DNA from: an uncultured Mollicutes bacterium
GTDB lineage: Bacteria; Bacillota_I; Bacilli_A; RFN20; CAG-826
Length of the DNA: 64,000 bases
Reading direction: 5' to 3'
Assembly (NCBI GenBank): GCA_900540385.1
Contig: UQFY01000001.1
Span: 11,344 to 75,343 of the forward strand
The translations under genes were made by a program, and so were the position numbers. Below the pieces are notes generated by a model. It did no database searches. It was not told the DNA's origin and saw nothing but the letters and a program-made list of their open reading frames with translations. Below, in pieces: positions 29,897 to 46,618 of this stretch; position 1 is the stretch's first letter, and every line of letters begins with the position of its first letter.

Positions 29897-30106
29897 GTGG
29901 CCATTCTCTTTGGCAAAGAAAAGACAAGGGAATATTCCGGTATAACGAAAAACTTCTTTGACGAATATTTTAAGGACAGAAAGGTTGCTTGCGCTTACAA
30001 ACTTGGGAAAATCAAAGTATACGATGAGCCAAAGGCTTTAACGGAATTTGGTTTAAGAGTTGCCCCTCAACATTTGCTTATGCAAAATAACTTTACCCCT
30101 TTTTAA
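29897..30106 (+). pseudogene. truncated duplicate of the 3' half of the ASCH-domain gene at 32226..32597
   Basis: Protein REYSGITKNFFDEYFKDRKVACAYKLGKIKVYDEPKALTEFGLRVAPQ nearly identical to C-terminus of 32226..32597 product; DNA 29921-30201 parallels 32430-32700. Confidence 0.75.
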
Positions 30107-30166
30107 AGGATTATTATTCGCACTTATAACAAAAGCCTCCAGTTCCCTCGAGGCAATCTATCTATT

Positions 30167-30201
30167 TGGTGCGTCTGGCAGGAATTGAACCTGTATGAGT
30201 C
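30167..30201 (-). repeat. 35-nt partial copy of the tRNA-like 3'-end element, bracketed by CTATTTGG direct repeats
   Basis: tggtgcgtctggcaggaattgaacctgtatgagtc preceded by hairpin gcctccagttccctcgaggc; reverse complement ends ...GGTTCAATTCCTGCCAGACGCACCA. Confidence 0.8.
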
Positions 30202-30375
30202 CGCTTTATCTATTTGGACGATTGATTATTTGATATACTTATAAGCGCCGTTTTTCATAACCAACAATAGAGTTTCGGTTGTTAAATAGTAGTTTTAATG
30301 AATATCGCATGCAGACTCATTTTTATTTATTTGAATATTAGGTTTAAAAATTTAAATGTAAGGGGGTAAGTGAAT

Positions 30376-32229
30376 ATGAAATCGATTATTGCCAAGATTA
30401 GGCCGCAGTTTTTGCCCTTAATAAAAAACGGCATAAAAAAACACGAATACCGTCTTGCCTCCCCTAAATACACCTCTTTAAATGTGGGAGATAGATTGAT
30501 TCTCGTCTCAAATCAAAATTCTGGGGATTTCGCGGTTACCCGAGTGAATAAAATAACAAAGTTTTATGATTGGGAAAAAGCTTTGGAAAAACATTGGGAA
30601 GAGGATTTTAAAGGGCTTTATTCCGACTTCGACGAGCTAATTGAGGAATGCCATGGATTCTACACAGCCGATGAAATCAAGGGATACGGAATCGATGTTT
30701 TTGATATTTCATTAGATGAGCCCAAATTTCAAAACGCCCGATTTCTTCTTGATACGAATGTTATCATCCAAAAAGAAAGCGTGAATGATTGCTGTTCAGA
30801 AATCAATTTAGTTTATCAATCGATTGATAAGTTCAAAGGGACAAAGCTGTATCATCCAGCTACCGCAAAAGAGTTGAACGGATATAAGGATGAAAACATA
30901 AAGAAGACAATGATTGCCAAACTAAATTCATATGAAAAATTAAGCGAAACAACAATTTGTGATGCTTATTTCAAACAAATTGTCGCACTTTTTGAAAATG
31001 ACGAGAATAGTGAGAATGATAATGAGATTCTTTATCAGGTATATAGCGGAAGAGCTGATTTTTTAATTAGTGAAGGCCGTGGCATTTTAAGAAAAGCGGA
31101 GCGACTGTATTTACGAGACAGGGTGATGAGCCCAAGCGAATTCCTAACGAATGTTGAAAAACAAAACCCAAGTTTAATTTATTACGACGCGTTGTCCGTG
31201 TCTCTAGTCAAAATTAGCTCGTTAGATATCAATGATCACTTTTTCGATTCTCTTCGTGAAGACTATGGTGGAGAAGATTTTAACCAATGGCTAACGAAAA
31301 AATCAAAGGATGACGCATACGTTTTCCGAAATAAGGAAGGAATTCAGGGGTTTTTGTATTTGAAGGCCGAGGGAATAGATGAAGATTATTCCGATTTTAA
31401 TCCTCGCCTTACGCCGAAAAGAAGGCTTAAGGTAGGAACGTTTAAAATCAATAGCATCGGGATTCGTTTGGGCGAAAGATTCCTAAAAATCATCTTCGAC
31501 AACGCTTTGAAACGAGATGTTGATGAGATTTATGTCACCATGTTTAAAGACAAACGCCAGGAAGTGCGCGGCTTAAAGGAATTGATGGAAAAATGGGGAT
31601 TTGTCGAAAAAGGCGCAAAGGAAAACGGTGAAGTTTACTTAGTAAAAGACATGCGGAATTACGATGAGACGAAAAATCCAAAATTCAATTACCCACTTTA
31701 TAAGAACGATTGCTCGATTTCTTTTTTGCCAATCGTTTCCAAATATCACACAAAGTTATTTCCAGATCTTCACCTCAAGAATGAAAATCCCGCGCTTTTT
31801 GATACCGCATGCAGTTACGCAATTGAAAAGACTTATGTTACCGCGTGGAAAGGCGTTGATTTAGGACCAGGCTCTCTTTTATGTGTTTATTGTATGGCGG
31901 ACTATAATAAGAAATACCGTTCTGCCATCACAGGGGTGTGTATCCTTAATGAAGTAATTAAAACGTCGAGCGTCGATGAACTTGTTAAGGAATGCCAAAA
32001 CAGGTCTGTATTCACGGAGCCTGAGTTGCGCGAGCTTTATAATGAAAAGAATTACACAACCATTGTAAAAGTTTTGTATTTGAAGCCGTTTGACCATAAG
32101 ATAAACTACGATCGTTTGAATGCCGCTGGTTTGCTCGGCACTAAAGGTGGACCCCGATTGAATTCCAAACTTTCGTATGAAGAATATCTTGAACTAGTTA
32201 AATTAGGGGAAGGAGAAGAAATAATATGA
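30376..32229 (+). CDS. multidomain protein: N-terminal ASCH domain, central PIN-like domain, C-terminal GNAT-like region
   Basis: ATG 30376 after SD aaggggg (track uses upstream GTG); N-terminus MKSIIAKIRPQFLPLIKNGIKKHEYR paralogous to the ASCH protein next door; ARFLLDTNVIIQ looks like a PIN first acidic box; IGIRLGERFL...LMEKWGFVEKG resembles GNAT motif A. Confidence 0.55.
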   Translation: MKSIIAKIRPQFLPLIKNGIKKHEYRLASPKYTSLNVGDRLILVSNQNSGDFAVTRVNKITKFYDWEKALEKHWEEDFKGLYSDFDELIEECHGFYTADEIKGYGIDVFDISLDEPKFQNARFLLDTNVIIQKESVNDCCSEINLVYQSIDKFKGTKLYHPATAKELNGYKDENIKKTMIAKLNSYEKLSETTICDAYFKQIVALFENDENSENDNEILYQVYSGRADFLISEGRGILRKAERLYLRDRVMSPSEFLTNVEKQNPSLIYYDALSVSLVKISSLDINDHFFDSLREDYGGEDFNQWLTKKSKDDAYVFRNKEGIQGFLYLKAEGIDEDYSDFNPRLTPKRRLKVGTFKINSIGIRLGERFLKIIFDNALKRDVDEIYVTMFKDKRQEVRGLKELMEKWGFVEKGAKENGEVYLVKDMRNYDETKNPKFNYPLYKNDCSISFLPIVSKYHTKLFPDLHLKNENPALFDTACSYAIEKTYVTAWKGVDLGPGSLLCVYCMADYNKKYRSAITGVCILNEVIKTSSVDELVKECQNRSVFTEPELRELYNEKNYTTIVKVLYLKPFDHKINYDRLNAAGLLGTKGGPRLNSKLSYEEYLELVKLGEGEEII

Positions 32230-32597
32230 AAAAAATAATAATTTCAATCAATCCAGAACACGTGAATAACATCATAAACGGAACAAAAAAATACGAATAT
32301 CGTACCAAGGCGGCCAAGAAGGACGTCAATAAACTGATCATTTACGAAACCACGCCAATCAAAAAAGTAGTTGCCGAAGCCGAGATTGTCGAGGTGCTTG
32401 CTCTTGATCCAAATGCCCTTTGGGAAAAGACAAGGGAATATTCCGGTATAACGAAAAACTTCTTTGACGAATATTTTAAGGACAGAAAGGTTGCTTACGC
32501 TTACAAACTTGGGAAAATCAAAGTATATGATGAGCCAAAGACCTTAACGGAATTTGGTTTAAGAGTTGCCCCTCAATCATTTGCTTATGCAAAATAG
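32226..32597 (+). CDS. ASCH (PUA-like) domain protein
   Basis: MKKIIISINPEHVNNIINGTKKYEYRTKA typical ASCH N-terminus; overlaps upstream gene stop by 4 nt. Confidence 0.7.
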   Translation: MKKIIISINPEHVNNIINGTKKYEYRTKAAKKDVNKLIIYETTPIKKVVAEAEIVEVLALDPNALWEKTREYSGITKNFFDEYFKDRKVAYAYKLGKIKVYDEPKTLTEFGLRVAPQSFAYAK

Positions 32598-32673
32598 CTT
32601 TTGTCCCTTTCAAATGAATTATTATTTGCACTTATAACAAAACCTCCAGCTCCCCGGAGGCAATCTATCTATT

Positions 32674-32754
32674 TGGTGCGTCTGGCAGGAATTGAATCTG
32701 CATGAGCTGCCTCGTTAGATCCTAAGTCTCACACAGTCCTTTCTTTCGTTTGGA
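32674..32754 (-). repeat. ~80-nt partial copy of the tRNA-like 3'-end element with preceding terminator hairpin
   Basis: tggtgcgtctggcaggaattgaatctgcatgagctgcctcgttagatcctaagtctc... aligns to first ~95 nt of the full copies; hairpin cctccagctccccggagg at 32643-32660. Confidence 0.8.
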
Positions 32755-33018
32755 AGAGCAAAATGCATCCGATTGGAACAGGACGGAAAATAGCGTATTG
32801 TTTTCAACCTAAAGTACGAAAAATGATTGTCGATCATTTGGGCACTTTGGCTTTTCCAGCTCGCTCACTAATCAAACGCTTTTCGATGAATGTTAAGAAG
32901 GAACGAGACTTAAAAACATATCTTTTGATATACTTATTAATGCAAGCACATCTTACCGGCGTTCGCTGTTCATTTTTTGAACTAATGGTGCGTTTTCGGA
33001 TGTTGAAAAAGAATAACA

Positions 33019-35781
33019 ATGATACATGAATTTGATTTTCAATTTTGGAAAAACAACGTTGTCGATATTTGTGACTGGATAGATGCAACAATTAAAAGAT
33101 ATCCAGCTGAGGAACGAGAAACTGTTTCCACAGATGCGATAAAACGTTTGCGAGACTTGATTAATGCCGTTTGTGTTTGCTGCCTTTTAAAAAACAAACC
33201 CCAAACTTTTAAAAACCAATATGACTATATTGTTCAAGGCCTAAAATATGTCGAAGCCAATAAAAGCTATAAATTCATATATGACTTTTACAAACGTTCA
33301 AAAATAAGCCTGTCCCATTATTCTCCTTTTGGGGAAGAAGCAGAGAGATTAATGCTAAGATATTGCGAAAATCTACTTCATTTAAAAAACTATTTGAAAA
33401 ACGAACTTGGCTTGGACGTTCTTCATGAATTGGATCGTTTCCCGATGGACTTAGATGAAACGTTCGAAACATACTATTTGGAAATCATAAAAGCCATGCA
33501 ATCGATAGCCTTTGACGGTCGTTCTTCGAGAGGAAGAGATTTATATTATGTTCAGAAAAAGAAAACCATTTATTGCCAGAACGTTCTTTTTTATGAATAC
33601 ACTTTATCGAGCGCGAATGACGGCCTAAGCAAATTTGATCGCTTTACCGCCTTTTCAAAAATTGATGTTTTTGATAATTACGCCATCAAAGCTTCATTTT
33701 TGAAGAAACCTGTTTCACTTTTTGGCGTAGAAGTTCACCTCAATTTTTTGACGGATTATCAGGTTGCCATTCGACCTTGTGAATTTAGCCGTTTACTGCA
33801 AATTATCGGAATTACTTTAAAAAACACTTTTTCTCCAGGAAAAGAATACCATCGGTTGTTATCTTATATTCAGGAACACAAAGAGCCTTTAGATGAGCTT
33901 TTAATTGCAGATAAGTATGATTTCAAACGCCTTTTAGATACCATTCATATAACAAAAGAATCATATTTGTATCTCTTTTTAACTAAATCTCGAAGAATTC
34001 TTTTGAGTGATCAAATTGGAAAAAATGTTTATAAATATCTTCTTCGCACTATCAACAATAGAATTTTGAAAGAACAAATGCCTTTGTTGGGTTATTCCTC
34101 AATTTTAAGTAATGAAATCAGGGTCAGAAAAGCGGATTCTCTTTTCGATGGTATGCCATACGTTTTTTCTTTGGTCAAACATAATCCTAGATTTGAAACT
34201 CTGTTAGATTGTTTCCCTTTGGCGGAACATGAAGATGAAATGATTAAAAGATGGGTTAATAAAATGAGTTTGGATAAATCCGTACTTTACAATCAGATTC
34301 CTGGTGAAACCACTTTTGAGAAAATAGAAGAGAGTGTTCGCAGGTTTAATGCTCTGTGTAACGAAAAAGGTTTTAAAGACGAATATAAACTGCAGTTTTT
34401 CAAAAATTATATCTACGAAAACGGCACCGAACAAACTTGTCATAAACTGATAAAAAAGCTCTTGGATTTGGCGAAATGTTCAAATGTTCCCGATTTTACC
34501 TCCTACATTCAATCAAGGATTGAAGAGATAGGCTTTAAAATAGATGACCCGCAGAAAAGATCGGCTTTAAAAACAATGTATAAAAATGGTTCTCTTTTCG
34601 CCATATATGGCTGTGCGGGTTCCGGGAAAAGCACCTTCGCAAGCTATCTTCTTAAAATACTTGGTAAAGAAACAAAAGTACTTTGCTTGACCAACACAAA
34701 TCCAGCTTTAATGAATCTAAGAAAGAAATTGGGTGAAGAAGGAACTCAATATTTCACGACATATAGGTTTCTACGTTTGAAAGAAGAAAATGTCCCGGAT
34801 TGCGATTTTTTAATTATTGACGAATGTAGTAACATTTCCAATACAGATATGCTTGCCGTTCTTGAGAAAGCCCATTTTAAACTGCTTCTTCTTTTGGGAG
34901 ACGTGCATCAAATTGAATCAATACAATTCGGCAATTGGTATTCTTTGCTGTTCCATTTTCTTTCGGACACAGAAAAAATAGAACTTTGTTCAGCCTATCG
35001 AGCTCAAAAAAATGAACATTTATTGGGCTTATGGAAAGTGGTACGAGAAAACGATGATTCGATATTTGAACTATTTGAAAAGTGTAAAGTTTCTAAAAAA
35101 CTTGGAGATGAGTTATTCGAAACTTCAAGCTCGGATGAAGTCATTCTTTGCCTTAATTACGATGGCTTATATGGCTTGAATAACATTAACAATTATCTTC
35201 AAACAAGAAACCCAAATCCTGCGGTTTATTGGAAACAGTATACGTTTAAAAAGGGAGATCCTATTTTATTTATTGAAAACTCTCGCTTTGGTTCCCTGCT
35301 TTATAATAATTTAAAAGGGAAAATCGATGAAGTGGAAAAGGACGAAAAAGGCAATCTTCATTTTAAGATTGTGGTTAATAGATCCGTTAATCCTTTTGAC
35401 CGATTAGAAGGATTTGAGTTAGTAAAGAACTTTGGCGACGGACGGAGCCTTATTGCTTTTTCCGTTAGAAATCCTAAAGATATAGACTATGAAAACGATA
35501 TGAAGGAGGATTGCAAAATTCCTTTTCAGATTGCTTATGCTGTTTCTATACACAAAGCCCAAGGGCTTGAATACGATTCCGTTAAGATCGTGATAACAAA
35601 TGAAGTAGAGGAACTAATTACTCACAATATTTTTTACACAGCTATTACTAGGGCAAAAAATGATTTAACGATTTACTGGACGCCTGAAACCGAAAGAAAA
35701 ATCATTAAATCTTTGCAAATTAGAAACAACGCCAGTGATTTTTCCATTCTTCAAAATAAGTTCTCAGACTTGCGCAGATAG
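33019..35781 (+). CDS. SF1 (RecD/UvrD_C_2-type) helicase with ~500-aa N-terminal domain of unknown function
   Basis: Walker A IYGCAGSGKST, Walker B LIIDECSN, AYRAQ and SIHKAQGLEYDSV (UvrD_C_2 signature). Confidence 0.75.
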   Translation: MIHEFDFQFWKNNVVDICDWIDATIKRYPAEERETVSTDAIKRLRDLINAVCVCCLLKNKPQTFKNQYDYIVQGLKYVEANKSYKFIYDFYKRSKISLSHYSPFGEEAERLMLRYCENLLHLKNYLKNELGLDVLHELDRFPMDLDETFETYYLEIIKAMQSIAFDGRSSRGRDLYYVQKKKTIYCQNVLFYEYTLSSANDGLSKFDRFTAFSKIDVFDNYAIKASFLKKPVSLFGVEVHLNFLTDYQVAIRPCEFSRLLQIIGITLKNTFSPGKEYHRLLSYIQEHKEPLDELLIADKYDFKRLLDTIHITKESYLYLFLTKSRRILLSDQIGKNVYKYLLRTINNRILKEQMPLLGYSSILSNEIRVRKADSLFDGMPYVFSLVKHNPRFETLLDCFPLAEHEDEMIKRWVNKMSLDKSVLYNQIPGETTFEKIEESVRRFNALCNEKGFKDEYKLQFFKNYIYENGTEQTCHKLIKKLLDLAKCSNVPDFTSYIQSRIEEIGFKIDDPQKRSALKTMYKNGSLFAIYGCAGSGKSTFASYLLKILGKETKVLCLTNTNPALMNLRKKLGEEGTQYFTTYRFLRLKEENVPDCDFLIIDECSNISNTDMLAVLEKAHFKLLLLLGDVHQIESIQFGNWYSLLFHFLSDTEKIELCSAYRAQKNEHLLGLWKVVRENDDSIFELFEKCKVSKKLGDELFETSSSDEVILCLNYDGLYGLNNINNYLQTRNPNPAVYWKQYTFKKGDPILFIENSRFGSLLYNNLKGKIDEVEKDEKGNLHFKIVVNRSVNPFDRLEGFELVKNFGDGRSLIAFSVRNPKDIDYENDMKEDCKIPFQIAYAVSIHKAQGLEYDSVKIVITNEVEELITHNIFYTAITRAKNDLTIYWTPETERKIIKSLQIRNNASDFSILQNKFSDLRR

Positions 35782-35815
35782 TTAAAAGCGGCATTACGTT
35801 TTAGAGGAAAAATAG

Positions 35816-37018
35816 ATGAGAAAATACGATTTAATCCATAGCCTGCCAGCAATAAAGCTTGTTATAGGAAATGGCTTTGACTTATATTGTGGTTTAGAAA
35901 CTAGATATGTTGACTATTTCAATTCACGTAAAGAAAAATTCGACAGTATACGAAATTGCATAAATCAGCTTAAAAATGTTACAACAAAAAAATTTATAAA
36001 AGAAGCGTCCATCAATGAACTAATACCTCATGTTTTTCCAGGAAATAGAAATATCAAAGAAATAAATGTGTGGGATTTTTTGTTTGCAATATTGTCAGAT
36101 GAACACAAAGACGAAATCGAAGATTGGAACTGGTGTGACGTAGAAAGCGTAATGGCAAAATGGCTTAAAGATGAGCCTCATTCTGAAAACGAATGTGATT
36201 GGAATATTGTCTTTGAAGCCTTGAAAAATAATGTAAGCAAAGAACCAATGTCGTTTCAATATCGTTGTTTGGCCGCTTTCGTCCTTTTAAAAAATAAACT
36301 TAAAACTTTTGAAAGCGAAGACGCCTATTTCGTTTTTCTATTGGAGCAGCTTAATCAATTCGAAAAGGATTTCGGTGAATACATTCAAAACCAACTCATG
36401 ACTCGGATAGAAATAAGCTTTGGTATAAGAGAGAGGCTGGAACGGTTTTCTTCTGATTCTGAGCGGACAATACAAGAATTGTGTTCTCAAAACAGAATCA
36501 CAAGTATTGATACTTTCAACTATGACGCTCCGTCCATCGAAGGCCTTTACGATAAATTTCATCATATAAACGGCGATTTGGAGTCGCCGATTTTTGGAGT
36601 GGATACGACGTTATTTAAAGCGGATGACCCCAGGTTCATTTTTACAAAAACTAGCCGGAGAATGCATCTTGATATGATGCGCTCTGATAATTTCATACCG
36701 GCAGGATTTAGTAACGTCATTATTTTTGGTCATTCTTTAAATAGAGCTGATGATAATTACTTCTTTTCAATTTTTGATAAACTTGACATTACAAATCCAA
36801 GCAACAATTCAAAAATTGTATTTGCGTATTACGTTTATGATTCTCAAAGGCGTAGCGAAATAATATCTTGCGAGAGAAATAAAATCTCTATTCTTTTTCA
36901 AGAGTACTCTAAATATAAATTTGGAGATTTTCATGGTAACAGGCTGCTTGACGAATTAACTATACAGGGAAAAATTATTATGTATGAAATGCCAACATTG
37001 CCAAAGAATTATTTTTAA
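35816..37018 (+). CDS. AbiH-like abortive-infection protein
   Basis: N-terminal KLVIGNGFDLYCGLETRYVDYF matches the AbiH family N-terminal signature. Confidence 0.5.
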   Translation: MRKYDLIHSLPAIKLVIGNGFDLYCGLETRYVDYFNSRKEKFDSIRNCINQLKNVTTKKFIKEASINELIPHVFPGNRNIKEINVWDFLFAILSDEHKDEIEDWNWCDVESVMAKWLKDEPHSENECDWNIVFEALKNNVSKEPMSFQYRCLAAFVLLKNKLKTFESEDAYFVFLLEQLNQFEKDFGEYIQNQLMTRIEISFGIRERLERFSSDSERTIQELCSQNRITSIDTFNYDAPSIEGLYDKFHHINGDLESPIFGVDTTLFKADDPRFIFTKTSRRMHLDMMRSDNFIPAGFSNVIIFGHSLNRADDNYFFSIFDKLDITNPSNNSKIVFAYYVYDSQRRSEIISCERNKISILFQEYSKYKFGDFHGNRLLDELTIQGKIIMYEMPTLPKNYF

Positions 37019-37207
37019 TTAGTTCCGGCCAATTTTCTAAAACAAAATGGTTTTCTAAGAAGCATTTGAATGGAACACTTTTTTTTAGGTTTATGGTGTG
37101 CATTCATAAAAAGATTTAAAACATCAAAAAAAGTTTGACATATTCAAAAATAAATTGATGCTAAAATATATTTGTGATAAAAATAATGAATACTAAAGAG
37201 GTTTAAT

Positions 37208-37342
37208 ATGTCAGTCAGCTATAATAAACTTTGGAAAAGATTAATCGATGAGAAAATGAAAAAGGTTGATTTAATGAGAAAATCGGGAATTAGTACAAAC
37301 GCATTGACGCATTTGAGCAAAAATGAAATTGGATGGCATTGA
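37208..37342 (+). CDS. truncated XRE/Cro-type helix-turn-helix protein (44 aa)
   Basis: ATG 37208 with SD aaagagg; MRKSGISTNALTHLSKNE is an HTH_3 helix2-turn-helix3, but ORF stops (TGA 37340) where family members continue; overlaps next gene start. Confidence 0.4.
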   Translation: MSVSYNKLWKRLIDEKMKKVDLMRKSGISTNALTHLSKNEIGWH

Positions 37343-39041
37343 AGCTTTTAACCTGCAAAAAGAGGAGGATCTTATTCTCCCTTCTTTGCCTTGTGTCTCT
37401 TTCGAGGTAACAAAAGGCAACGAACTAGAAACCATTGACCAATATAGATTGGTTTCAGGAGAGCAAAACGAATACACGCTCCTCGTATCTTATATGAGTG
37501 ATGTACATCTTACGCATAAATTATTGGCTAATTCTTGCAAGACGATATACGATGCGGAAGAAGAAATTCGTGAACTCTCGAACGTTTTCTTTAATAAAAC
37601 GCAAACTAAGATTTCTTTGTTTGTAGGCGACCTTACTGACAAATTCGATTTATACGAGAAATTTTTGAAATGCCCAGTCTTGTTCCGCCACAAGAATAAG
37701 TTTTTCTTCACTTTAGGGAATCACGAACTTTGGGCATTCCCAAATCAAAGTTTGGAAGAAACAATAACTAAATACAGATGCCTTTTGGAAGATGAGGGGA
37801 TCAATCTTGTTCAAAACGATGTCTATTATTTTCAGTCTTCTGATCCTTTTTTCTTAAGAGATCCTATTAGGATTAGCGAACAAGAATTAAAGACTCTATC
37901 CTCTGACGATCTTCATAAAAAACTGAGGGATGCCTCTCTCATTATTTTTGGAGGCATTGGTTTTGCTGGCGCCAATCCTACGTTTAACGCTACGAGCGGC
38001 ATTTATCAAAACGTTTTGAGTAGAGAAGAAGAAATAGAGGAGACAAAAAAGTTCTGTGATTATTACAAGAAAGTCATCGATGCGACAAAGGGGATGCATC
38101 TTATTGTGTTGACCCACATGCCAGTGAAGGATTGGCTTGGCGAAGAAAAATACGAGCCCGGAGTCTTATACGTTAATGGTCACACTCACAATAACTATAG
38201 ATACGACGATGGGATAAAAAGAGTCTATTCAGATAACCAATCGGGATACATGTCTAAATCGATTTCATGGAAAGAAACTTCCACTGACTTTGGATTCGAC
38301 TGGTTCAAAGATTATAAAGATGGCATTTATCCAATAAGCCTTGCTGATTACCGAGTATATTATCGAGGAATCAATGAGAGGATGAATCTCAAGAAAGAAC
38401 CCGGGCAACTATATCTTTTAAAACGAGATGGCTTGTATATGTTTCTTTGCAAAAAGGAAAAACTGTATTTCATGCAAGGCGGGAAAAAACTTAATTTAGA
38501 GAATCAAGACGTTGAATATTATTATAAAAAGATGGAGGCGTATGCGAACTCTATCAAAGAATGCCTTTCCGAATATGAATTGGCCCAAAATCGCATAGCA
38601 AACGAAATCAAAAAGATTGGCGGTAGTGGTCTTATCCATGGTTGCATCATCGACATCGATTTCTTTAACCATATTTATCTTAATATCCTTGATGGAAAAG
38701 CAACTCCTTATTACGCTTCCTTCATAACAGCTAAAATGGCATATCAAAATGTCGCCAGTCTTCTAAGTGATAAATGTCCAACGCTATATTCCAAATATCA
38801 AGCCCTCATTGATGGGACAAAAGGCAACTCATTAACGACTTTAGGCGATAATAAGATTTCAAAAAAGACGTATTTCGTAACGGACACGAGCATGTATCGT
38901 ATCTCTAGACTGATTAAGCAACTCCAATTCATTGGAGACCATGGCTTGATAAGGCAATGGAATGATGAGGTTGCTAATAAAGCATCTAAAGAGAATGGAA
39001 CTCTTATTTTGAGAGATATGCTTATCGGAGAAGAACAATAA
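37323..39041 (+). CDS. calcineurin-like metallophosphoesterase with long C-terminal extension
   Basis: VGDLTD (GDxxD) and FTLGNHELW (GNHE) phosphoesterase motifs. Confidence 0.65.
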   Translation: MKLDGIEAFNLQKEEDLILPSLPCVSFEVTKGNELETIDQYRLVSGEQNEYTLLVSYMSDVHLTHKLLANSCKTIYDAEEEIRELSNVFFNKTQTKISLFVGDLTDKFDLYEKFLKCPVLFRHKNKFFFTLGNHELWAFPNQSLEETITKYRCLLEDEGINLVQNDVYYFQSSDPFFLRDPIRISEQELKTLSSDDLHKKLRDASLIIFGGIGFAGANPTFNATSGIYQNVLSREEEIEETKKFCDYYKKVIDATKGMHLIVLTHMPVKDWLGEEKYEPGVLYVNGHTHNNYRYDDGIKRVYSDNQSGYMSKSISWKETSTDFGFDWFKDYKDGIYPISLADYRVYYRGINERMNLKKEPGQLYLLKRDGLYMFLCKKEKLYFMQGGKKLNLENQDVEYYYKKMEAYANSIKECLSEYELAQNRIANEIKKIGGSGLIHGCIIDIDFFNHIYLNILDGKATPYYASFITAKMAYQNVASLLSDKCPTLYSKYQALIDGTKGNSLTTLGDNKISKKTYFVTDTSMYRISRLIKQLQFIGDHGLIRQWNDEVANKASKENGTLILRDMLIGEEQ

Positions 39042-39068
39042 GAATCAATGTTCTCTTTTAACAAAAAA

Positions 39069-39096: not shown

Positions 39097-39102
39097 AAGT
39101 TT

Positions 39103-39505
39103 CTTATATTTTTGGTGCGCCTGGCAGGAATTGAACCTGTATGAGTCGCCTCATTAGATCCTAAGTCCTACATAGGGGGCTTCTTTCGTTTGGCTCGCTA
39201 AGGAACACGGAAGTGGAATCAGACGCACAGGAGGAAATTTGTTGCCAGTCCAAAGTAAGAAAAAGAATGCCAATCAATAGCGTACATTGGCTTTTGCGGA
39301 CGAGCTGCGGACGGAAGCGGACGGCCATGGCAAGCCTTATTTTAGACCTGCAGATTGATGGTGTTTCACCAGTCGGAACCGCCTTCGTTCCTGCAAGCAT
39401 TATAACAAAACAAAATGCGAATACAATAGGAAAAAACAAAGATTTCATCGAACTTTTTTCAATGCCCGGATAAGATTCTGTCGGGTTCTTTTTAAGGTAT
39501 GCGGA
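39103..39505 (-). repeat. ~400-bp GC-rich repeat, copy C; minus-strand 3' end is tRNA-like (T-arm CAGG-UUCAAUU-CCUG, acceptor CAGGCGC, A, CCA); candidate structured ncRNA
   Basis: Identical to 44296-44690 over ~350 bp, similar to ~390; reverse complement of 39103-39216 gives GCGUCUG...ACAGGUUCAAUUCCUGCCAGGCGCACCA with 7/7 pairing between ends including one G-U; internal GNRA hairpin AUGAG-GCGA-CUCAU. Confidence 0.85.
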
Positions 39506-39658
39506 CGCATCGGTTTAGCAAAAATGATGTCATTGTTTTAAATATCATCTCCCCTTTTTCAACTTAAGAATAGAAATATAAAAATCGGTTTCTTCGATGC
39601 CCCATCATAATCCTGCTATAATAATGTGAGCAATAAACATATAAGGAGCATAATCATC

Positions 39659-41566
39659 ATGGGAGATAACCAATTTGAACCCTATCCTTGGTCGCTTAAA
39701 CAGGTAGTTGAACAGAACTTCTATGAAGTCCCGATTTATCAAAGACCATACACATGGTCCACTCCGGAAGTGAATTCCCTTTTAGATGACATTTTTTCAG
39801 CTTATCGTTCTAATACGGATCAATCCCGAAATTGCCTTTTCACCGGCCAACTTTTCTTGCGCAAGATGGGTAAAGGGAGTGATGGTGTAAAAGACAAATA
39901 CGAAGTTGTTGATGGACAGCAGCGTCTTACAACTTTTTCTATGATTCTAATCGCCATTTTTTCCATTGCTAGAAAAAGAGGGTTTAAGGACGAGGATAAG
40001 GAAATTGCAGACCTTCGTTCTTTTTTATGGAAATACTCTCAAAGTCAAAGAAACTATAACAAGAATGAACGTTTAATCACTCTATCCAGTATTGACAAGG
40101 ATTTGTTCCAGTTCATTTTTGATTCCGCTTATGATAGTCCCACTGAGATTTTGAAACTTGTTGATGGTTATCCAATTGCATGTGCTACAGAGAGTAATCT
40201 TCGTCTCATGCTTCACAAAGTTTATGAAAGAATCGAAAAGGAGATCCCAATTAGAAAAGATGCTTCCGATGAAATTCTTCATTTTTTGTCGTTTTTATGC
40301 GATAAGACTCTTTTCATTGCTATCCAATCCTCAATCGATATGCCTCGTGTCTTCTCAGTTTTTGAGTCTATTAACAGCAAAGGAAAACCGTTGGATGACA
40401 TTGATAAAATCAAGACGTACATCTTCTCAATCTTGGAAGAAAAGGATTATTCCAGCTATCTCATGCGCTGGGGACAGCTCATCATCAAAACCGATGATAA
40501 ATTAGAGGAATATTTGCAGGTATACATTAAAGCTTTCCTTTTCTATTATCGCCAAAAAATCAACTTGAAGGAATTCAAAGCTATCGCTAGATGCTTACCC
40601 GGCATCTATGGTGTGTCATCTCTGGCCGAAGCATTGAAACGGCTGATTGACGAAATGCTGGCAAAAGCGGATAGCTTTGCTTTGCTCGGAAATGAAGCGA
40701 AAATAGAAAAACTTATCAACAAACCAGAATTCACGACCTTTTACAAGCTTTATTCTTTGAATGGCTATTCGCACCCTAAGTCTTTGTTCTTCCGTGCAAT
40801 GTGTGAATACTTACACACGAAGGACGACGGGACACCAGACCCACTTATTACAAAAGAAGGACTGACCAAGATTGTAAAATCGGCAACCTTGTTCATGTTC
40901 AAGTTCCAATCAATTAAGGGCGGCGATTCTAAAGATGCAATCAGATATTTTGAGAATATCGGTAAGAATTTCTATGGGAAAGTCGCTTTGGACCCAGATT
41001 GGATTTCTTCCGCTTTTGCCAACGCTCTTATAAAAGAAGGCGTAGACAAATCTACGATTCGCTCCGACTTTATCAATATGGACTTCTATTCTAAACGAGA
41101 CCTTGCTTATTGTGTTCTTTCTTTGCTTGAGTCCATTGATACAAAGAAAAATAAAGATGGAACCGTCAGTAACAAGCTGCTTTTCGCTCAAGCATCAGCA
41201 ATGCTGTCTCATATCAAAGATAAAACTTTCCAGGTAGATCATATGCTTCCTCAATCTCCCGATAAAAACGAGCCTAGATTCAAATATTATAAAGATGATA
41301 GTAAGAATCCTGCTGTTTTGGTTTTGAAGGAGGGAAATGATTTTCCAAAAGAAACTGTTATTGATGGCATGAGATATGATGAATTTGAAAGCAGAACAAT
41401 CAATCATATAGGAAACATTCAGCTATTAAACCCTCAGAAAAACGAAGAGAAAGGGAATGGAGTTTATCAACTCCCTAACCATGAAGAATTTACAACCTAT
41501 CAGCAGGTGCTTGATCGTTGTCAAAAAATGGCTGACTTGTTATTCAATACGTCGGATTTAAACTAA
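39659..41566 (+). CDS. GmrSD-family type IV (modification-dependent) restriction enzyme, DUF262 + DUF1524
   Basis: ATG 39659 after SD aaggag; DUF262 motifs YQRPYTW and VVDGQQRLTT; C-terminal His-Me finger-like QVDHMLPQS and INHIGNIQLL. Confidence 0.8.
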   Translation: MGDNQFEPYPWSLKQVVEQNFYEVPIYQRPYTWSTPEVNSLLDDIFSAYRSNTDQSRNCLFTGQLFLRKMGKGSDGVKDKYEVVDGQQRLTTFSMILIAIFSIARKRGFKDEDKEIADLRSFLWKYSQSQRNYNKNERLITLSSIDKDLFQFIFDSAYDSPTEILKLVDGYPIACATESNLRLMLHKVYERIEKEIPIRKDASDEILHFLSFLCDKTLFIAIQSSIDMPRVFSVFESINSKGKPLDDIDKIKTYIFSILEEKDYSSYLMRWGQLIIKTDDKLEEYLQVYIKAFLFYYRQKINLKEFKAIARCLPGIYGVSSLAEALKRLIDEMLAKADSFALLGNEAKIEKLINKPEFTTFYKLYSLNGYSHPKSLFFRAMCEYLHTKDDGTPDPLITKEGLTKIVKSATLFMFKFQSIKGGDSKDAIRYFENIGKNFYGKVALDPDWISSAFANALIKEGVDKSTIRSDFINMDFYSKRDLAYCVLSLLESIDTKKNKDGTVSNKLLFAQASAMLSHIKDKTFQVDHMLPQSPDKNEPRFKYYKDDSKNPAVLVLKEGNDFPKETVIDGMRYDEFESRTINHIGNIQLLNPQKNEEKGNGVYQLPNHEEFTTYQQVLDRCQKMADLLFNTSDLN

Positions 41567-42295
41567 GGATCTGAAACTGATTATAAAGAAGCATTCAGAG
41601 CTTTAGAATCTCCATGGATATAAGTATGGCTGAAGTTTTAGTGCACAGTTATTTTAACTACATTCTAGAACCCTAGAAATTAGTGACTAAACCCGCAACA
41701 TCCTGCCGGCAAGATTTGAACCCCACCAGCAATTAAGGTGGTTTTGTTTCAATTGGGGATGCTATTTAACGACGTATACCCTGGAAGGAGTCGAAAACGG
41801 CAATACGACCAACGGGGATGTATCCGTATCCTGGGAAGACGATGATGTTTCGAAGATTGTCTATTCCCTTGATGGAGGAGAGGGAATTCTATTTGAAAAC
41901 TGCGCTCTCTTCGACAAAGAGGTAAAGTATGTTGTAAAGGTGGTCGATAAGCTAGGAAATGAGACCTTAAAACCTTCACTATCGATAAGACTGTCGATCA
42001 CTCTGTGGCTACTTCGGACGGATATCGATTTTTGTTGTCTACTCGTCGATCTCTTTTCGTAGCACCTTATTCCATGCGGCGAGACCCTCCACGGATTTAT
42101 AGTTCTTATCAAACTGGGAGGTGGTTAGCTTCATTTCGGAGCTGAGCGCCTTTAAACACTGGTTGATGTCTACCAGTAGTGTTTTTTTGAACTCTTTTTC
42201 GCCTTCAAGACCGATCTTCAGTCCGAAACTATCTGCTATATACCGTCATCTCCTTGTAGATGGCATGAAAAAAACACCTTTTCACCGAGAAATTG

Positions 42296-42316
42296 GGACG
42301 AAACCGTCCGAAGTTT
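42296..42316. repeat. hairpin motif GGACGAAACCGTCCGAA downstream of COG1373 paralog 3
   Basis: Read directly; second copy at 43687-43708. Confidence 0.8.
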
Positions 42317-42394
42317 TCGGTGGGAGCCTTCCTGATGGTACGAAAAAGGAGTGTCCCTGAAAGGCCACTCCTCGTAGACATATGAGTTATTTTG

Positions 42395-43678
42395 TCAGAA
42401 CAATTCTACCCGGCCAAGCAGCAGGTCGATCAGATTGCAGTGGAAGATGCCGTTGTCGTCATAAAAATTGTGCTGCACATCCATGCGAACGATAATCTTT
42501 TTGAAGAAATCCTTGGTAAGCATCAGCGATGCCAGTTCGGAAAATTCCTTTTTATCGGTATCCATGCGGAAAGCGGACTGAATATAGATTTTTTTATCCG
42601 CATCGTTTACCACAAAGTCGATCTCTTTCTGAACCTTTCTGTCGCCCGTGCGGTCGCAAACCACACCGACATCAACGGAGTACCCGCGTCGCAGAAGTTC
42701 GTTATAGACCATGTTTTCCATGATATGACCGGGATCGTATTGGCGGTAATTCAGCCGTGCGTTCCGAAGCCCGATATCTGTATAGTAGTATTTGTTCGGA
42801 TATTTGAAATAGGTCTTTCCTTTGACATCATATCGCTTTGCCATTGAAATGAGAAAAGAGTCGATAACATACTGCACATAGTTTGAAACCATCGCAGGAT
42901 TGATTTTTTCGTTCTTCATGGACGCGATGGCGTTTGCGATATTGGTCGGATTCGTCAGCGAACTGATCTGCGAAGCAAGGAAGTCCAGAATATCATTTAG
43001 AACATCCTCGCGCTCGATGCCGTTTCGCTCCACAATATCCTTAACATACAATTCGTTGTAGAGGGAGGTCAGATAATCCTTCTTATCTTTGTCATCCTCC
43101 AGTGCTAAAAGTCTCGGCATACCGCCATAGAGCATATAGGTATCCAGCGCTTTTCGCTCGTCGCCGCCCACGGCAGAATAAAACTCCGCAAATGACAAAG
43201 GGAACACGTGGATCTGTGTAGCACGACCGCGAAACTCTGTTGCGATATCTTTTGACAACCCTTTGGAGTTACTGCCGGTGACATAAACATCAAGGTTTTT
43301 ATATGCCTTGAGTTCGTTCAGCATATCGTAGATGGTAACCTCGATGCCACCGTTTTCCTTGTCCACTACTTTTGTGGTGAGCTGCACCTCATCAATGAAC
43401 AGATAGAATTTTTCATCCTTCCTGCCCTGGACGGCGTTTTCTACATATTCGCACAAAGTGATCGGATTCCTGAGCTTATAGTACCGCCGCTGGTCCAGTT
43501 CGATTTTCAAAATATGATCTTCCGAAACGTTCTGCGAAAGAAGATACTCGAAAAACAGATCGAAAAGCAGTACGGACTTGCCGCATCTGCGTATGCCTGT
43601 GACGACCTTTATCTCGCCGTTCCACATACTGTGGATCAGTCTGTTCATATAGGAATCGCGTTTAACCATATATTTCAC
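42395..43678 (-). CDS. AAA+ ATPase with DUF4143 domain (COG1373 family), paralog 3, in a GC-richer patch
   Basis: VVTGIRRCGKSVLLFDLF P-loop; C-terminal EIDFVV box. Confidence 0.85.
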   Translation of the reverse strand: MKYMVKRDSYMNRLIHSMWNGEIKVVTGIRRCGKSVLLFDLFFEYLLSQNVSEDHILKIELDQRRYYKLRNPITLCEYVENAVQGRKDEKFYLFIDEVQLTTKVVDKENGGIEVTIYDMLNELKAYKNLDVYVTGSNSKGLSKDIATEFRGRATQIHVFPLSFAEFYSAVGGDERKALDTYMLYGGMPRLLALEDDKDKKDYLTSLYNELYVKDIVERNGIEREDVLNDILDFLASQISSLTNPTNIANAIASMKNEKINPAMVSNYVQYVIDSFLISMAKRYDVKGKTYFKYPNKYYYTDIGLRNARLNYRQYDPGHIMENMVYNELLRRGYSVDVGVVCDRTGDRKVQKEIDFVVNDADKKIYIQSAFRMDTDKKEFSELASLMLTKDFFKKIIVRMDVQHNFYDDNGIFHCNLIDLLLGRVELF

Positions 43679-43686
43679 CTCGTACT

Positions 43687-43708
43687 TAGGACGAAACCGT
43701 CCGAACTT
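43687..43708. repeat. hairpin motif GGACGAAACCGTCCGAA upstream of COG1373 paralog 3
   Basis: Read directly. Confidence 0.8.
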
Positions 43709-44295
43709 CTATGTGTAATATACCACGATTTTCGAAAAACATTAAGACTATACGAAAAAAGCTCACAAAGAAGTTACGACGGAAATGGGCTTAGTTCGAG
43801 GTGAAACTGCCGGATATGGGTCAAATGCCGTCCGGGATAATATCGTCGATATGATGCTCTCGTGCCGGGGCGTCCTGCCCGTTATACCGCTTGTGGCACT
43901 CCCATAAGTTCAAAAGCAGGGCAAACGGCATCAGACACGCCTCATCCTGCGACCGATGAAGGTGATCAATTTTACGGTAGCGATATTGATCGGTTTTATA
44001 TTAGCACCACCATTCCTCTCAAGATTCTCGTCAAGGAAGGCCGCTAGAAGGCAGCAAAGCGCCTGATTGAGGAACTTTCCGCTCCGGGAGCCTTCAACCT
44101 CGAATCCGTCAATGCGACAAATCAGAGATTGACTGTGGGTTTAAATTATATGAAGCCGCTCCATATCTTTTCAAAATCGCTGATTCTTGTTATTACATTT
44201 GCATCGGTGACCTGAAAATAGTGGTTTCATCATTTTTAATACTGTATTCCTGTAATTAAATCCCCTTCATTTGAAGGGATTGCTATCTATCTATT

Positions 44296-44690
44296 TGGTG
44301 CGCCTGGCAGGAATTGAACCTGTATGAGTCGCCTCATTAGATCCTAAGTCCTACATAGGGGGCTTCTTTCGTTTGGCTCGCTAAGGAACACGGAAGTGGA
44401 ATCAGACGCACAGGAGGAAATTTGTTGCCAGTCCAAAGTAAGAAAAAGAATGCCAATCAATAGCGTACATTGGCTTTTGCGGACGAGCTGCGGACGGAAG
44501 CGGACGGCCATGGCAAGCCTTATTTTAGACCTGCAGATTGATGGTGTTTCACCAGTCGGAACCGCCTTCGTTCCTGCAAGCATTATAACAAAACAAAATG
44601 CGAATACAATAGGAAAAAACAAAGATTTCATCGAACTTTTTTCGATGCTCGGATAGGGTTCTGTCGTGTTCTATTCAAGGCATGCGGATG
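44296..44690 (-). repeat. ~400-bp GC-rich repeat with tRNA-like 3' end, copy D, preceded by terminator hairpin ATCCCCTTCATTTGAAGGGAT
   Basis: Identical to copy C over ~350 bp. Confidence 0.85.
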
Positions 44691-44890
44691 CATCGGATTT
44701 TGGATGGGGCTATCTTTTGATATACTTATAGAGGCCAAATCAATTGAGAAAAATTAATGGATGCTTTTGTGCTGACTGACCAACTTGTTGTGCATTTGGT
44801 TTAATTTGTTCCTAAGTCTTCTTCTATTAAAAAACAATTGAATGTCACAAGTCAGTAATGAACACGGTTCATTTTGAAGGGGGCTAAATC

Positions 44891-46276
44891 ATGGATTTAG
44901 AAGATAAGATAGGTCGGCAAGAATTTGTGGATAAAGTTTGTGGGGTGATTGATTCACTGAAAAAGGACAACCACATCTGCCTGGCAATTAATGGGTCCTG
45001 GGGAAGCGGGAAGTCGTTCGTTTTAGGAATGATTGAAGATAAGCTTTCACAAAAGCCTGAATATATCGCCATCAAATATGATGCCTGGGAAAACTCTTTT
45101 TATTCCGATCCGCTTATATCTATCCTTTCCTGCATCATTGATGAAGTAGAGGAAAAGTTCCCTTTGCCACCTGGAAAAGAGAATATCAAGCAAGCCGTAA
45201 AGGCTGGCTTTGAAGCTATTGCCGAGGTAACGCCTAAACTACAAAATCTGAAGGCTATCATCAAAGGATTGACTGCCGTTATAAAAAGCTTTCAACATCC
45301 CATTGATACGGCAGATCTTGATGAATTCAAATCGTACAAGAAGCTTTTGAAGGAAACGAAAGAACTTCTGAATAAACTTGCGTCATCGGAAGATGGCGCA
45401 AGTCAAAGCAAACTTATCATCCTTGTCGATGAGATTGATCGTTGCTTGCCTGATGAGCAATTGAAGATATTGGAACGGCTTCACCATTTGTTTGATGTGA
45501 AGAACTGCGCGGTCATCGTTACGATGAATCAAAGCTCTGTGGCAAAAACAGTGGAAACAGTCTATGGAGTTGATGGCTATGAATATCTTCGCAAGTTCTT
45601 TGACTTCACCTTTAGACTCAGCGTGTCTGCGAAAGATTATCTTAGAAATCTACTGAATGATTGCACCAAGATTTTTGTGAAAATGGGCGTGCCCGAAGAC
45701 AAGGCCGAAATTCCCACCAAGCTGGCTTGCCAATGCTTGCTGTACGGGGATAAAAAAGTCCTGGATAAAACAGATAACAGAGAGCTTACCCGATATTACG
45801 AAGGGGTAATGAATGTTTGCAATGACTTTGGATGGGAGAGAATAAGAAATCCCTATTATGTTTTCTTTGTTTTGGTGGCTTTATACATTCGAAGAGTAAT
45901 TGATCCCTCATTTTTAGATACAGAGATGATTTTGTCTAATCAGGCTAAATTTTCAAATGATTTTAAAAGCCTCTCACGGGAAGAAAGAGAGATGAAAATG
46001 CCCTATTTTGATTACTTGAAGAAGCACATAGGATTCGATAGAGAAAACCCTCCAGAAGCATTCGAACAGCTTTATCGCTGGGGAGGAAGCGACATGGCTG
46101 AGTATTGCTGGACCTTTAATGAAACTATTTATTATTCTTTGGCAAAAGAAATTCCCAACAATGATTGGAGAAGATTTTACAGCCAACCGACTGTTAATCC
46201 GGATGATTGCAAAGTGTTGTGTAAGCTAATTGTCTTATATGGCGGGGAGCAACCGAATGTAGTTGATAAAAAGTGA
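44891..46276 (+). CDS. KAP-family P-loop NTPase
   Basis: LAINGSWGSGKSFVLG Walker A and LIILVDEIDRCLPDE Walker B. Confidence 0.8.
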   Translation: MDLEDKIGRQEFVDKVCGVIDSLKKDNHICLAINGSWGSGKSFVLGMIEDKLSQKPEYIAIKYDAWENSFYSDPLISILSCIIDEVEEKFPLPPGKENIKQAVKAGFEAIAEVTPKLQNLKAIIKGLTAVIKSFQHPIDTADLDEFKSYKKLLKETKELLNKLASSEDGASQSKLIILVDEIDRCLPDEQLKILERLHHLFDVKNCAVIVTMNQSSVAKTVETVYGVDGYEYLRKFFDFTFRLSVSAKDYLRNLLNDCTKIFVKMGVPEDKAEIPTKLACQCLLYGDKKVLDKTDNRELTRYYEGVMNVCNDFGWERIRNPYYVFFVLVALYIRRVIDPSFLDTEMILSNQAKFSNDFKSLSREEREMKMPYFDYLKKHIGFDRENPPEAFEQLYRWGGSDMAEYCWTFNETIYYSLAKEIPNNDWRRFYSQPTVNPDDCKVLCKLIVLYGGEQPNVVDKK

Positions 46277-46446
46277 AAACCCCAAAATTTAAGAAAATCG
46301 AGTGAAACTACCTGTCAAGTCCTGAAATTCATAACTTTTGAAACTATAATATAAGCATATTGAAGGGCCTATGGCTCCATTTGCTTACGATCATGGAGTA
46401 CGTAAGGAAACAAGACTCCTTTAAGGAAGAAATAGGAGGATTTTCT

Positions 46447-46600
46447 TATGAACTATGAGTACACAGTCTTTTCAGAGAACAACTATGGAGTTCTCAAACA
46501 GGAACTAAACGATTATGGAAGATATGGCTGGAAGCTTGTCAACGTCGTCTGGGATAATGATAATGCCTGTTTGGTTGCCGTGATGATAAGAGAAAGATAA
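46447..46600 (+). pseudogene. DUF4177-like small ORF, apparently split by a +1 frameshift at a G-run near 46498-46502
   Basis: ATG 46447 with SD aggagga gives MNYEYTVFSENNYGVLKQ; the downstream +1 frame gives ELNDYGRYGWKLVNVVWDNDNACLVAVMIRER ending at 46600; joined they match the DUF4177 pattern (M.YEY......GW.LV.V). Depends on exact G-run length at a line break, so low confidence. Confidence 0.3.
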
Positions 46601-46618
46601 GAGCAAAAAAGAAGTTGA

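Follow-up and report, generated by a model that had tools for sequence, protein, structure and literature searches.

Probable accretion and decay of integrative and conjugative elements at a tRNA-Leu gene in a strain-variable defence island of an uncultured gut bacterium

INTRODUCTION

In streptococci, integrative conjugative elements (ICEs) as well as integrative mobilizable elements (IMEs) enter the chromosome, decay to remnants that keep flanking attachment (att) sites but have lost their integration and transfer genes, and are joined by new elements through accretion (PMC5704250). Such remnants are called cis-mobilizable elements (CIMEs). Examples include ICESt1 and ICESt3 with their CIMEs in Streptococcus thermophilus and the composite tRNA-Lys islands of S. 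agalactiae (PMC5704250). Here we analyse a locus of similar architecture in a 64-kb stretch of DNA (the window) from an uncultured gut member of the Bacillota (Bacilli lineage). In this window, three gene modules rich in predicted anti-phage functions lie between four direct repeats derived from a tRNA-Leu(TAG) gene, and what appears to be an intact ICE adjoins them on the right.

Vibrio superintegrons are chromosomal arrays of integron cassettes that carry defence genes. In the Escherichia coli pan-genome, the defence cargo of prophages, ICEs, IMEs and satellites resides in a limited number of hotspots, 18 of them at tRNA loci (PMC10121019). Actinobacteriophages show a further process that involves tRNA genes, namely tRNA-dependent lysogeny (Guerrero-Bustamante & Hatfull 2024, PMC10865867).

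An initial annotation of the window had read the region as a defence-cassette hotspot in which four modules are separated by tRNA-like repeats. The hotspot, defence-rich and variable between strains, is real. Its units are better described as remnants of integrative elements than as dedicated cassettes: we consider it probable that tandem accretion and decay of ICEs at tRNA-Leu, leaving CIME-like relics, produced the array. The proposed mechanism is already known; the locus shows it in unusually legible layers.

RESULTS

The repeats and their tRNA-Leu target

What are the repeats that separate the modules? The sequence GGTTCAATTCCTGCCAGGCGCACCA occurs in four minus-strand copies with at most two mismatches, at 30167-30191, 32674-32698, 39113-39137 and 44296-44320; 0.00 copies are expected in shuffled sequence. 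The copies are the 3' end of an 84-nt tRNA-Leu(TAG). Copies 2-4 comprise its last 55 nt, reaching back to GACTTAGGATC and starting in the anticodon loop, and copy 1 comprises its last 35 nt. In the alignment, only the T arm, the 3' strand of the acceptor and the CCA end are common to all four. The fragments are in direct orientation throughout, all on the minus strand, and a hairpin terminator stands behind each.

The fragments differ in their state of preservation. Fragment 4 (44296-44350), which is the 3' half of the host tRNA that the ICE displaced, and fragment 3 (39113-39167) are identical to the 3' half of the live tRNA; fragment 2 (32674-32728) has six substitutions relative to it; fragment 1 (30167-30201) is the most eroded. 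None is a functional tRNA gene. No copy has a full cloverleaf, since each begins in the anticodon loop or later; ARAGORN found no complete tRNA or tmRNA in the window, and Rfam found no RNA family there at the gathering threshold or at E ≤ 1. The four copies are displaced 3' parts of the target tRNA gene, that is, att scars, and not purpose-built boundary elements.

Comparison with relatives locates the target itself. Related contigs (labelled L001, L002 and so on) were retrieved from human-gut metagenomes by an exactly identical 920-aa helicase encoded in module 2; further contigs came from an identical 416-aa left-flank ATPase, an identical type IV coupling protein (T4CP) and the chromosomal flank. 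Contig L001 has modules 1, 2 and 3 in the same order as the window. At the position of fragment 4 it carries an intact 84-nt tRNA-Leu(TAG), followed by genes for a HAD hydrolase, a flavin reductase and an epimerase. In L013 and L014, two sister species whose HAD proteins are 96% and 88% identical, respectively, the tRNA is likewise intact, and it is directly followed by the sequence that the window has downstream of copy 3, namely the right end of module 2. From these two arrangements it follows that the array is a stack of insertions at one attB site. We read the region from 26.4 to 64 kb as a hotspot for integration on the 3' side of a minus-strand chromosomal tRNA-Leu(TAG) gene, whose live copy would lie beyond the right end of the window.

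Just upstream of fragment 1 in the tRNA sense, an 11-nt CCAAATAGATA (30207-30217) duplicates the CCA end of the tRNA and the bases downstream of it; this is possibly the last trace of another fragment. Sensitive BLAST revealed no more degenerate fragments left of 30.1 kb. The att core had no matches in a scan of viral contigs, hence no sign of a phage using the site.

The att arms

A conserved arm of about 370 nt adjoins fragments 3 and 4, a truncated version lies beside fragment 2, and fragment 1 has none. Arm identity between elements ranges from 72 to 97%. The left arm of the ICE (44351-44720, minus strand) contains three GTCCGC motifs spaced by 10-11 nt and a promoter-like site, and forms the constant left terminus wherever the element is found. 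The full arm of module 3, its P arm (39168-39516, minus strand), has four GTCCGC motifs and a promoter-like TTGTAT-N17-TATAAT sequence aimed at the fragment. Only the core-proximal part remains of the module 2 arm (32729-32855, minus strand); it can be aligned by BLAST as far as 32855, a multiple alignment suggesting up to about 165 nt. It is 72% identical to the ICE arm over 198 nt, and the GTCCGC cluster and promoter are missing. Preservation therefore declines from right to left both in the arms (full, truncated, none) and in the core (55 identical nucleotides, six changes, 35 nt).

The GCGGAC/GTCCGC motif occurs at 18 sites in the 64-kb window, 7 of them inside the two full arms, with three per arm at the 10-11-nt spacing. 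In contigs L047, L058 and L054 the same motif is found six to seven times, inverted, in the opposite arm across the core. This is the pattern expected of arm-type integrase sites, and we predict that the clusters serve as such.

The promoter-like sites (44592-44620 and 39409-39437, minus strand) read across the att core. Once the element is circular, such a site would read into its opposite end; within the array, its reading runs into the hairpin terminators behind the fragments. Might the arm instead encode a functional RNA, a transcript of about 280 nt with a tRNA-like 3' end that acts as regulator, decoy or insulator? The conserved promoter aimed at the fragment and the terminator after each one would suit such a transcript, and its predicted 5' end can pair with the T arm and acceptor 3' strand. 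Rfam and ARAGORN, however, gave no match even at E ≤ 1, and RNAalifold on four diverged arms returned a positive, that is penalising, covariation term, with compensatory changes in 1 of 75 pairs. The helix between the 5' and 3' ends is broken in the L013 variant, copies 1 and 2 have no promoter, and reading the arm as the P arm of an attP site with repeated arm-type motifs accounts for it in full. We regard a functional RNA as very unlikely. Protein-coding capacity does not account for the conservation of the arm either: its open reading frames (ORFs) of 86 and 95 aa have no Pfam match, and the arm alignment shows frame-breaking indels of 1-2 nt.

The arms also record an exchange of sequence. 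On the right side of copies 3 and 4, 300 nt are shared at 99% identity. The arms at 39105-39404 and 44288-44587 are 99% identical in the window strain, and in L001 and L002 the module 3 arm matches the ICE arm at only 87%. This points to gene conversion from one att arm to another 5.2 kb away. The module 3 arm in the window is a mosaic, in which a tract of about 300 nt has been converted to the ICE arm sequence.

Module 3, a probable decayed ICE

Domains and defence systems were assigned with Pfam, PADLOC, NCBIfam and a PDB sequence search. Relics of mobility genes were sought by tblastn, using as queries the ICE proteins of L007 and the integrases of L047 and L058.

The first cargo gene of module 3 (39626-41566, plus strand) encodes a 646-aa protein that we predict to be a type IV restriction enzyme of the GmrSD kind. 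Both Pfam domains score above the cutoff (GmrSD_N, DUF262, 3.6e-29; GmrSD_C, DUF1524, 2.5e-9), the translation shows the DGQQR motif in 'VDGQQRLT' and a DH motif of the His-Me nuclease kind in 'VDHMLPQ', and PADLOC reports HEC-06 (5.7e-34). Phage protection has been shown for HEC-06 GmrSD-like proteins (bioRxiv 10.1101/2024.01.29.577857). The second cargo gene (42395-43678, minus strand) encodes a 427-aa COG1373-type ATPase with AAA_14 and DUF4143 domains, matching PDC-S01 (1.1e-112). These assignments bear out the description of module 3 as GmrSD plus COG1373 ATPase.

The module holds two relics of mobility genes as well. At 41733-42023 (plus strand) lies a remnant of a 1612-aa conjugation-module protein, corresponding to residues 1210-1305 (56% amino acid identity, E 1e-17; 80% nucleotide identity over 237 nt). 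At 44012-44131 (plus strand), 165 nt from fragment 4, residues 32-71 of a tyrosine integrase of about 455 aa survive. They are 85% identical to the integrase of L047 and 80% identical to that of L058 (E 1e-13 and 1e-14), the DNA being 89% identical over 119 nt. The parts of module 3, beginning with the arm and continuing through cargo, the 1612-aa relic and the integrase relic to att, stand in the gene order of the ICE. With relics in this order and a full homologous arm, module 3 is very probably a decayed ICE of a family that used the same att site. Its ancestor was of the classical kind, with an attP in which the 55-nt 3' half and a terminator stood inserted ahead of a TAATTACAGGAAT motif.

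Could the array instead have arisen by segmental duplication or unequal crossing-over of a single tRNA-flanking segment, the modules being ordinary chromosomal genes? The flanks invite the idea, as copies 3 and 4 share their right sides and copies 1 and 2 have about 310 nt in common on the left, a stretch that takes in the 3' end of an ASCH gene. Against this, the sequence common to all copies is exactly the tRNA 3' part, from the anticodon loop in copies 2-4, and the genes between copies are unrelated. The 99% arm identity is strain-specific and so reflects the conversion tract; integrase and ICE relics are present; and in another species the same repeat of 55-58 nt bounds a different insert, a 1.8-kb toxin-antitoxin unit. 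The duplication explanation is largely refuted, and we give it almost no credence.

Modules 1 (between fragments 1 and 2), 2 (fragments 2 and 3) and 3 (fragments 3 and 4) all have direct repeats on both sides. No ORF between 29.9 and 44.3 kb has an integration or transfer domain, the only traces of mobility there being the 40-aa integrase relic and the relic of about 97 aa from the 1612-aa protein. Modules 1-3 thus show two of the features of CIMEs. Module 4, although described as a bounded unit of the same series, has no right-hand repeat: we found no fifth copy at 46611, its supposed boundary, or elsewhere in the window.

An integron cassette array was considered and rejected. The window has no IntI-type integrase, and its repeats are direct tRNA 3' halves, not imperfect palindromes of the attC type. 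Domain searches across the 64-kb window found no integrase gene of any kind among its ORFs.

The window has three genes for COG1373 ATPases, each with its own repeat of 33-43 nt; the repeats of two of the three, the left-flank gene among them, bear palindromes. They lie at 27396-27430, 28724-28758 and 28789-28823 for the left-flank gene, at 42280-42322, 43673-43715 and 43761-43803 (the 43-nt repeats of the module 3 gene), and at 22676-22774. Two genes have one copy past the stop and two upstream of the start, and the third has three tandem copies upstream. L013 and L039 show this layout too. The repeats may be operator sites or mark the boundaries of units.

The ICE to the right of fragment 4

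Module 4 had been described as KAP NTPase plus DUF4177-like. The KAP NTPase (461 aa, 44891-46276) is clear, matching PDC-S20 at 8e-52; the 50-aa DUF4177-like ORF (46448-46600) is a weak match (E 7e-4) under the Pfam cutoff. Both belong to a longer variable cargo region (44891-56886) that continues with a 90-aa ORF (46619-46891), a TrlF/Ppl-like PHP-ATPase (46881-49232), a split type IIG restriction-modification (RM) system (49256-52117, 52121-53674 and 53667-54359) and a Schlafen-type helicase (54636-56564). GC content, about 36% in the window, climbs to 45-53% from about 49 kb.

To the right of the cargo lies a conjugation backbone (56890-64000, plus strand). It encodes a sigma-70-like regulator (56890-57393), a MobL relaxase (57925-59229; 2.8e-23) and a T4CP (59226-61445; T4SS-DNA_transf 1.5e-50), and then the start of the 1612-aa ORF, also on the plus strand, which runs off the window at 64000. 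On contigs with an identical T4CP this order goes on beyond the window to Fic/RelB, next a pilin-like gene, then DUF8208 and a VirB4-like ATPase. The element accordingly combines a relaxase, a coupling protein and, on those contigs, a type IV secretion ATPase. L008 shares the backbone from window position 56710 on, and the defence cargo that it has left of that point is a different one; cargo and backbone meet at about 56710-56886.

Where are the integrase and the right att site? In the window we see the left site, fragment 4 with its arm; the integrase and right att are seen in the relatives L047, L054 and L058. Contigs L047 and L058 have an element at the junction of tRNA and HAD gene with an HTH_17 excisionase-like gene and a tyrosine integrase of 455-457 aa. 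In L054-L056 a 68%-identical integrase ends the order DUF8208, VirB4, ArdC, primase-like, DUF1281_C, Xis, Int, which overlaps the order beyond the window at 73-75% nucleotide identity. In relatives the order continues with Xis, tyrosine integrase, cargo and an att site at tRNA-Leu. Module 4 is therefore not a cassette; it is cargo at the left end of what appears to be an intact ICE, which we estimate at about 40 kb.

The relatives show another mode of insertion. In L047 (9542-9960), L058 (7432-7850) and L054 (13438-13880) the host tRNA-Leu is broken in the anticodon loop at GACTTAGGA, and its 5' half is left unrepaired. Only GACTTAGGA, a core of about 9 nt, is common to ICE and host tRNA. About 270 nt away, and behind an arm in which TGCGGAC is repeated six to seven times, each element has a complete tRNA-Leu(TAG) that differs in sequence. 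Integration in these relatives of the resident ICE appears to be tRNA-dependent. The TAATTACAGGAAT motif is common to the classical and the tRNA-replacing kinds of element.

The junction of ICE arm and fragment is constant. What adjoins it on the left varies from one metagenome to another, and in several of them is a 3' half belonging to a different tRNA of the ICE type, as would fit integration into tRNAs that earlier elements had left behind.

One contig, L062 (1-11644), joins the equivalents of window positions 49602-56886 to those of 44293-48534, running from the cargo end, upstream of the Schlafen-type helicase, through 117 nt and a tRNA 3' half into the arm and the KAP gene. It may represent the 12.6-kb cargo block as a circle or tandem; a collapsed tandem of CIME and ICE explains it equally well.

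Modules 1 and 2 and the left flank

Module 2 opens with the SF1 helicase (920 aa, 33019-35781, plus strand), which matches PDC-S53 at 5e-268. An AbiH-like protein follows (400 aa, 35816-37018, plus strand); Pfam AbiH matches it above the cutoff over profile positions 2-250 of 260 (7e-16), and the PADLOC AbiH model matches weakly, in the C-terminal part only (6.6e-4). Next come a truncated HTH_26 ORF of 44 aa (37208-37342, plus strand) and an N-terminally truncated Metallophos protein of 572 aa (37323-39041, plus strand). The predicted content of this module (SF1 helicase, AbiH-like protein, truncated HTH and metallophosphoesterase) was largely borne out. Why are the last two ORFs short? In relatives the Metallophos protein has 993-1010 aa, of which the window ORF is the C-terminal part. 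Contigs L006 and L014 have a block of HTH controller, C5 methyltransferase and restriction enzyme where the window holds the 44-aa HTH stump, and L006, L014 and L044 have the long Metallophos gene with the full controller, methyltransferase and restriction enzyme at the position of 37208-39041. The two ORFs border a deletion in which a type II RM system was lost, and module 2 is thus a deletion derivative.

Module 1 consists of two overlapping plus-strand genes that match both models of the two-gene system PDC-M11. PDC-M11A (619 aa, 30370-32229) has an N-terminal ASCH domain and a PADLOC score of 2.5e-142; PDC-M11B (123 aa, 32226-32597) is an ASCH protein scoring 4e-41; the ASCH domain of each is recognized by Pfam. 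The larger protein had been called ASCH-PIN-GNAT-like. The ASCH part stands, and neither PIN nor GNAT was detected in it by Pfam (E ≤ 1), NCBIfam or the PDB sequence search.

Left of fragment 1, the right end of a module-1-like element survives as a relic (29918-30152, plus strand), comprising the 3' end of a PDC-M11B-like ASCH gene and the region downstream. It duplicates 32424-32659, with 153 nt at 97% identity and then 83-84% in a repeat search, and is kept in strains that have no module 1. Further left is the COG1373-type ATPase (AAA_14 and DUF4143, PDC-S01; 27463-28713, minus strand), and beyond it a relic of an older ICE (26416-26778, minus strand). The latter consists of a RelB antitoxin gene (26527-26778) and a Fic remnant (26416-26511, residues 33-64 only). 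RelB is 79% identical to the ICE RelB over 84 aa (E 1e-43), the Fic fragment matches at E 2e-6, both by tblastn, and the DNA is 81% identical to the Fic/RelB region of the ICE.

Two gene groups lie well away from the array. A cluster at 1611-4834 resembles an RM system: besides a C5 cytosine methyltransferase (3566-4834) it encodes a MutH-like endonuclease (2881-3564) and a protein of 419 aa that matches no family. A Schlafen AlbA_2/HATPase_c_4 gene (15709-17184) lies between 105-nt direct repeats (15555-15659 and 17179-17283, 93% identical) in which AACATCTAGAAAT motifs are abundant.

Variation between strains

We found at least five arrangements between two common flanks, that of the identical 416-aa protein on the left and that of the tRNA and HAD gene on the other side. 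Modules 1-2-3 are followed by the tRNA in L001 and by the ICE in L002, L059 and the window. L004 is without module 1. L029-L031 are without modules 1 and 2 and have two extra genes ahead of GmrSD; their arm is chimeric, module-2-like near the core and module-3-like further out. At the same site, sister species carry TIR with the long Metallophos gene, a type II RM system, or Fic/RelB with another COG1373 ATPase. In another species the 1.8-kb insert bounded by the same repeat, there 58 nt long, encodes ParE/Phd. Breakpoints between strains with identical flanking proteins fall in the repeats. PADLOC or Pfam defence matches cover seven of nine main proteins. The content of the locus is therefore not fixed, and defence families are plainly present.

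What moves the modules? One possibility is that the integrase and excisionase (Int/Xis) of the resident ICE excise and reinsert integrase-less modules between att sites or carry them in cis, an active platform that would make the locus integron-like for defence modules. The fragments are all direct, module 3 retains a full arm and an identical 55-nt core, presence and absence of modules is bounded at repeats, the L062 junction is what a circle or tandem would give, and cis-mobilization of CIMEs is documented elsewhere (PMC5704250). The variants are nonetheless explained by homologous recombination between boundary repeats, as the chimeric L029 arm, the 300-nt conversion tract of module 3 and the repeats of about 310 nt at 97% identity around module 1 indicate. 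Modules 1 and 2, moreover, have no arm with GTCCGC motifs, about 100 nt remain of module 3's opposite arm, the modules hold pseudogene relics and are not compact cassettes, and no circular junction of module 1, 2 or 3 was seen. We consider an active cassette platform unlikely; integrase-mediated exchange is possible. There is a broader form of the idea, in which the tRNA-Leu locus would be a working exchange platform: Int/Xis would recombine pairs of orphan sites, module 3 or the 12.6-kb unit from KAP to helicase would be excised, reshuffled and exported in cis, and the ICE would rely on the tRNA-Leu that it carries, as elements do in tRNA-dependent lysogeny, the host copy being destroyed on integration. 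This too we think rather unlikely.

DISCUSSION

We propose that ICEs of one family, with a tyrosine integrase and an HTH_17 excisionase-like protein, recombined in the anticodon loop of tRNA-Leu at the core GACTTAGGA. Every insertion would shift the previous tRNA 3' half, from anticodon loop to CCA, outward, where it would remain as an orphan direct repeat. The resident would then decay by deletion, losing integrase and conjugation genes and keeping the variable anti-phage cargo next to the att site, and the next element would enter at the restored tRNA. Fragments and arms would afterwards become substrates for homologous, possibly Int-mediated, recombination, so that modules are deleted or converted and strains come to differ. 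Read in this way the layers, oldest leftmost, would be the Fic/RelB relic; the ASCH relic with fragment 1; module 1 with fragment 2; module 2, with its truncated arm, and fragment 3; module 3, with full arm and relics, and fragment 4; and the apparently intact ICE.

Several points weigh against this account. The duplications of about 310 nt around module 1 include the end of the module's own gene, which simple site-specific insertion does not predict. No recognizable ICE relic was found in modules 1 and 2 by tblastn with ICE proteins; their ICE origin is argued from position and fragments and, for module 2, from the truncated arm, which is suggestive. The integrase, right att and live tRNA of the window's ICE lie outside the window and are reconstructed from relatives at 73-75% nucleotide identity. 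For the same position we used the element of L058, whose 191-aa HAD protein equals that of L001 in length, and presumed the two to be the same species. We saw no direct excision or circular junction, the sole circular-looking contig, L062, being equally well a collapsed tandem. Finally, the defence role of the cargo is predicted solely from homology and context.

That cargo had been taken to include candidate new defence or toxin components. The candidacy holds; the novelty does not, as the proteins are already catalogued among the PDC candidates of PADLOC, which matched PDC-M11, PDC-S53, PDC-S01, PDC-S20 and a GmrSD/HEC-06-like protein. The PDC set comprises 145 candidate systems, untested and obtained through guilt-by-embedding. 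Their mobile or once-mobile context here modestly strengthens the defence candidacy of PDC-M11, PDC-S53, PDC-S01 and PDC-S20, and likewise that of the TrlF/Ppl-like ATPase and the large Metallophos protein.

The locus is a legible example of how a defence island may be assembled: ICE cargo arrives beside an att arm and outlasts the mobility genes. What is left of the att sites, scars and arms alike, then offers points of recombination through which the island is reshuffled from strain to strain. For annotation, tRNA-like repeats between defence genes can be read as att scars, which help to set the limits of an island's layers and to date them. The ICE family with tRNA-replacing integration, a mode so far described for actinobacteriophages, is a separate lead.

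How does the locus compare with known systems? Like the streptococcal CIME-ICE composites, it shows serial insertion at one att site, decay, tandem arrangement with direct att repeats and strain diversity through deletion and accretion. It differs from them in its host, an uncultured gut member of the Bacilli, and in its target, the anticodon loop of tRNA-Leu(TAG). It has at least three stacked layers and older relics besides, its cargo is almost entirely of the anti-phage type, and cis-mobilization is only hypothetical here. In addition, relatives of its ICE family bring their own tRNA instead of restoring that of the host.

With the hotspots of E. coli (PMC10121019) the locus shares defence cargo of mobile elements and an occupancy that varies between conserved flanks. 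Unlike them, it is visibly layered by orphan att scars, and most of its layers have no mobility genes at all.

Integron arrays offer a superficial parallel, being likewise strain-variable, defence-rich and made of short modules split by a repeated recombination site. Our locus, in contrast, has neither IntI nor attC hairpins, and its repeats are fragments of the target gene and not borne by cassettes. Its modules comprise several genes with their own promoters and in mixed orientation, and they contain pseudogene relics.

The closest parallel to the elements of L047, L058 and L054 is tRNA-dependent lysogeny: integration involves a core of only about 9 nt common to element and tRNA and does not rebuild the tRNA, and the element brings a complete tRNA of the same isotype and anticodon near the junction. 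These elements appear to be conjugative and their hosts are Bacillota, unlike the actinobacteriophages. Module 3 of the window departs from that scheme as a classical element, with an attP that carried the 55-nt 3' half.

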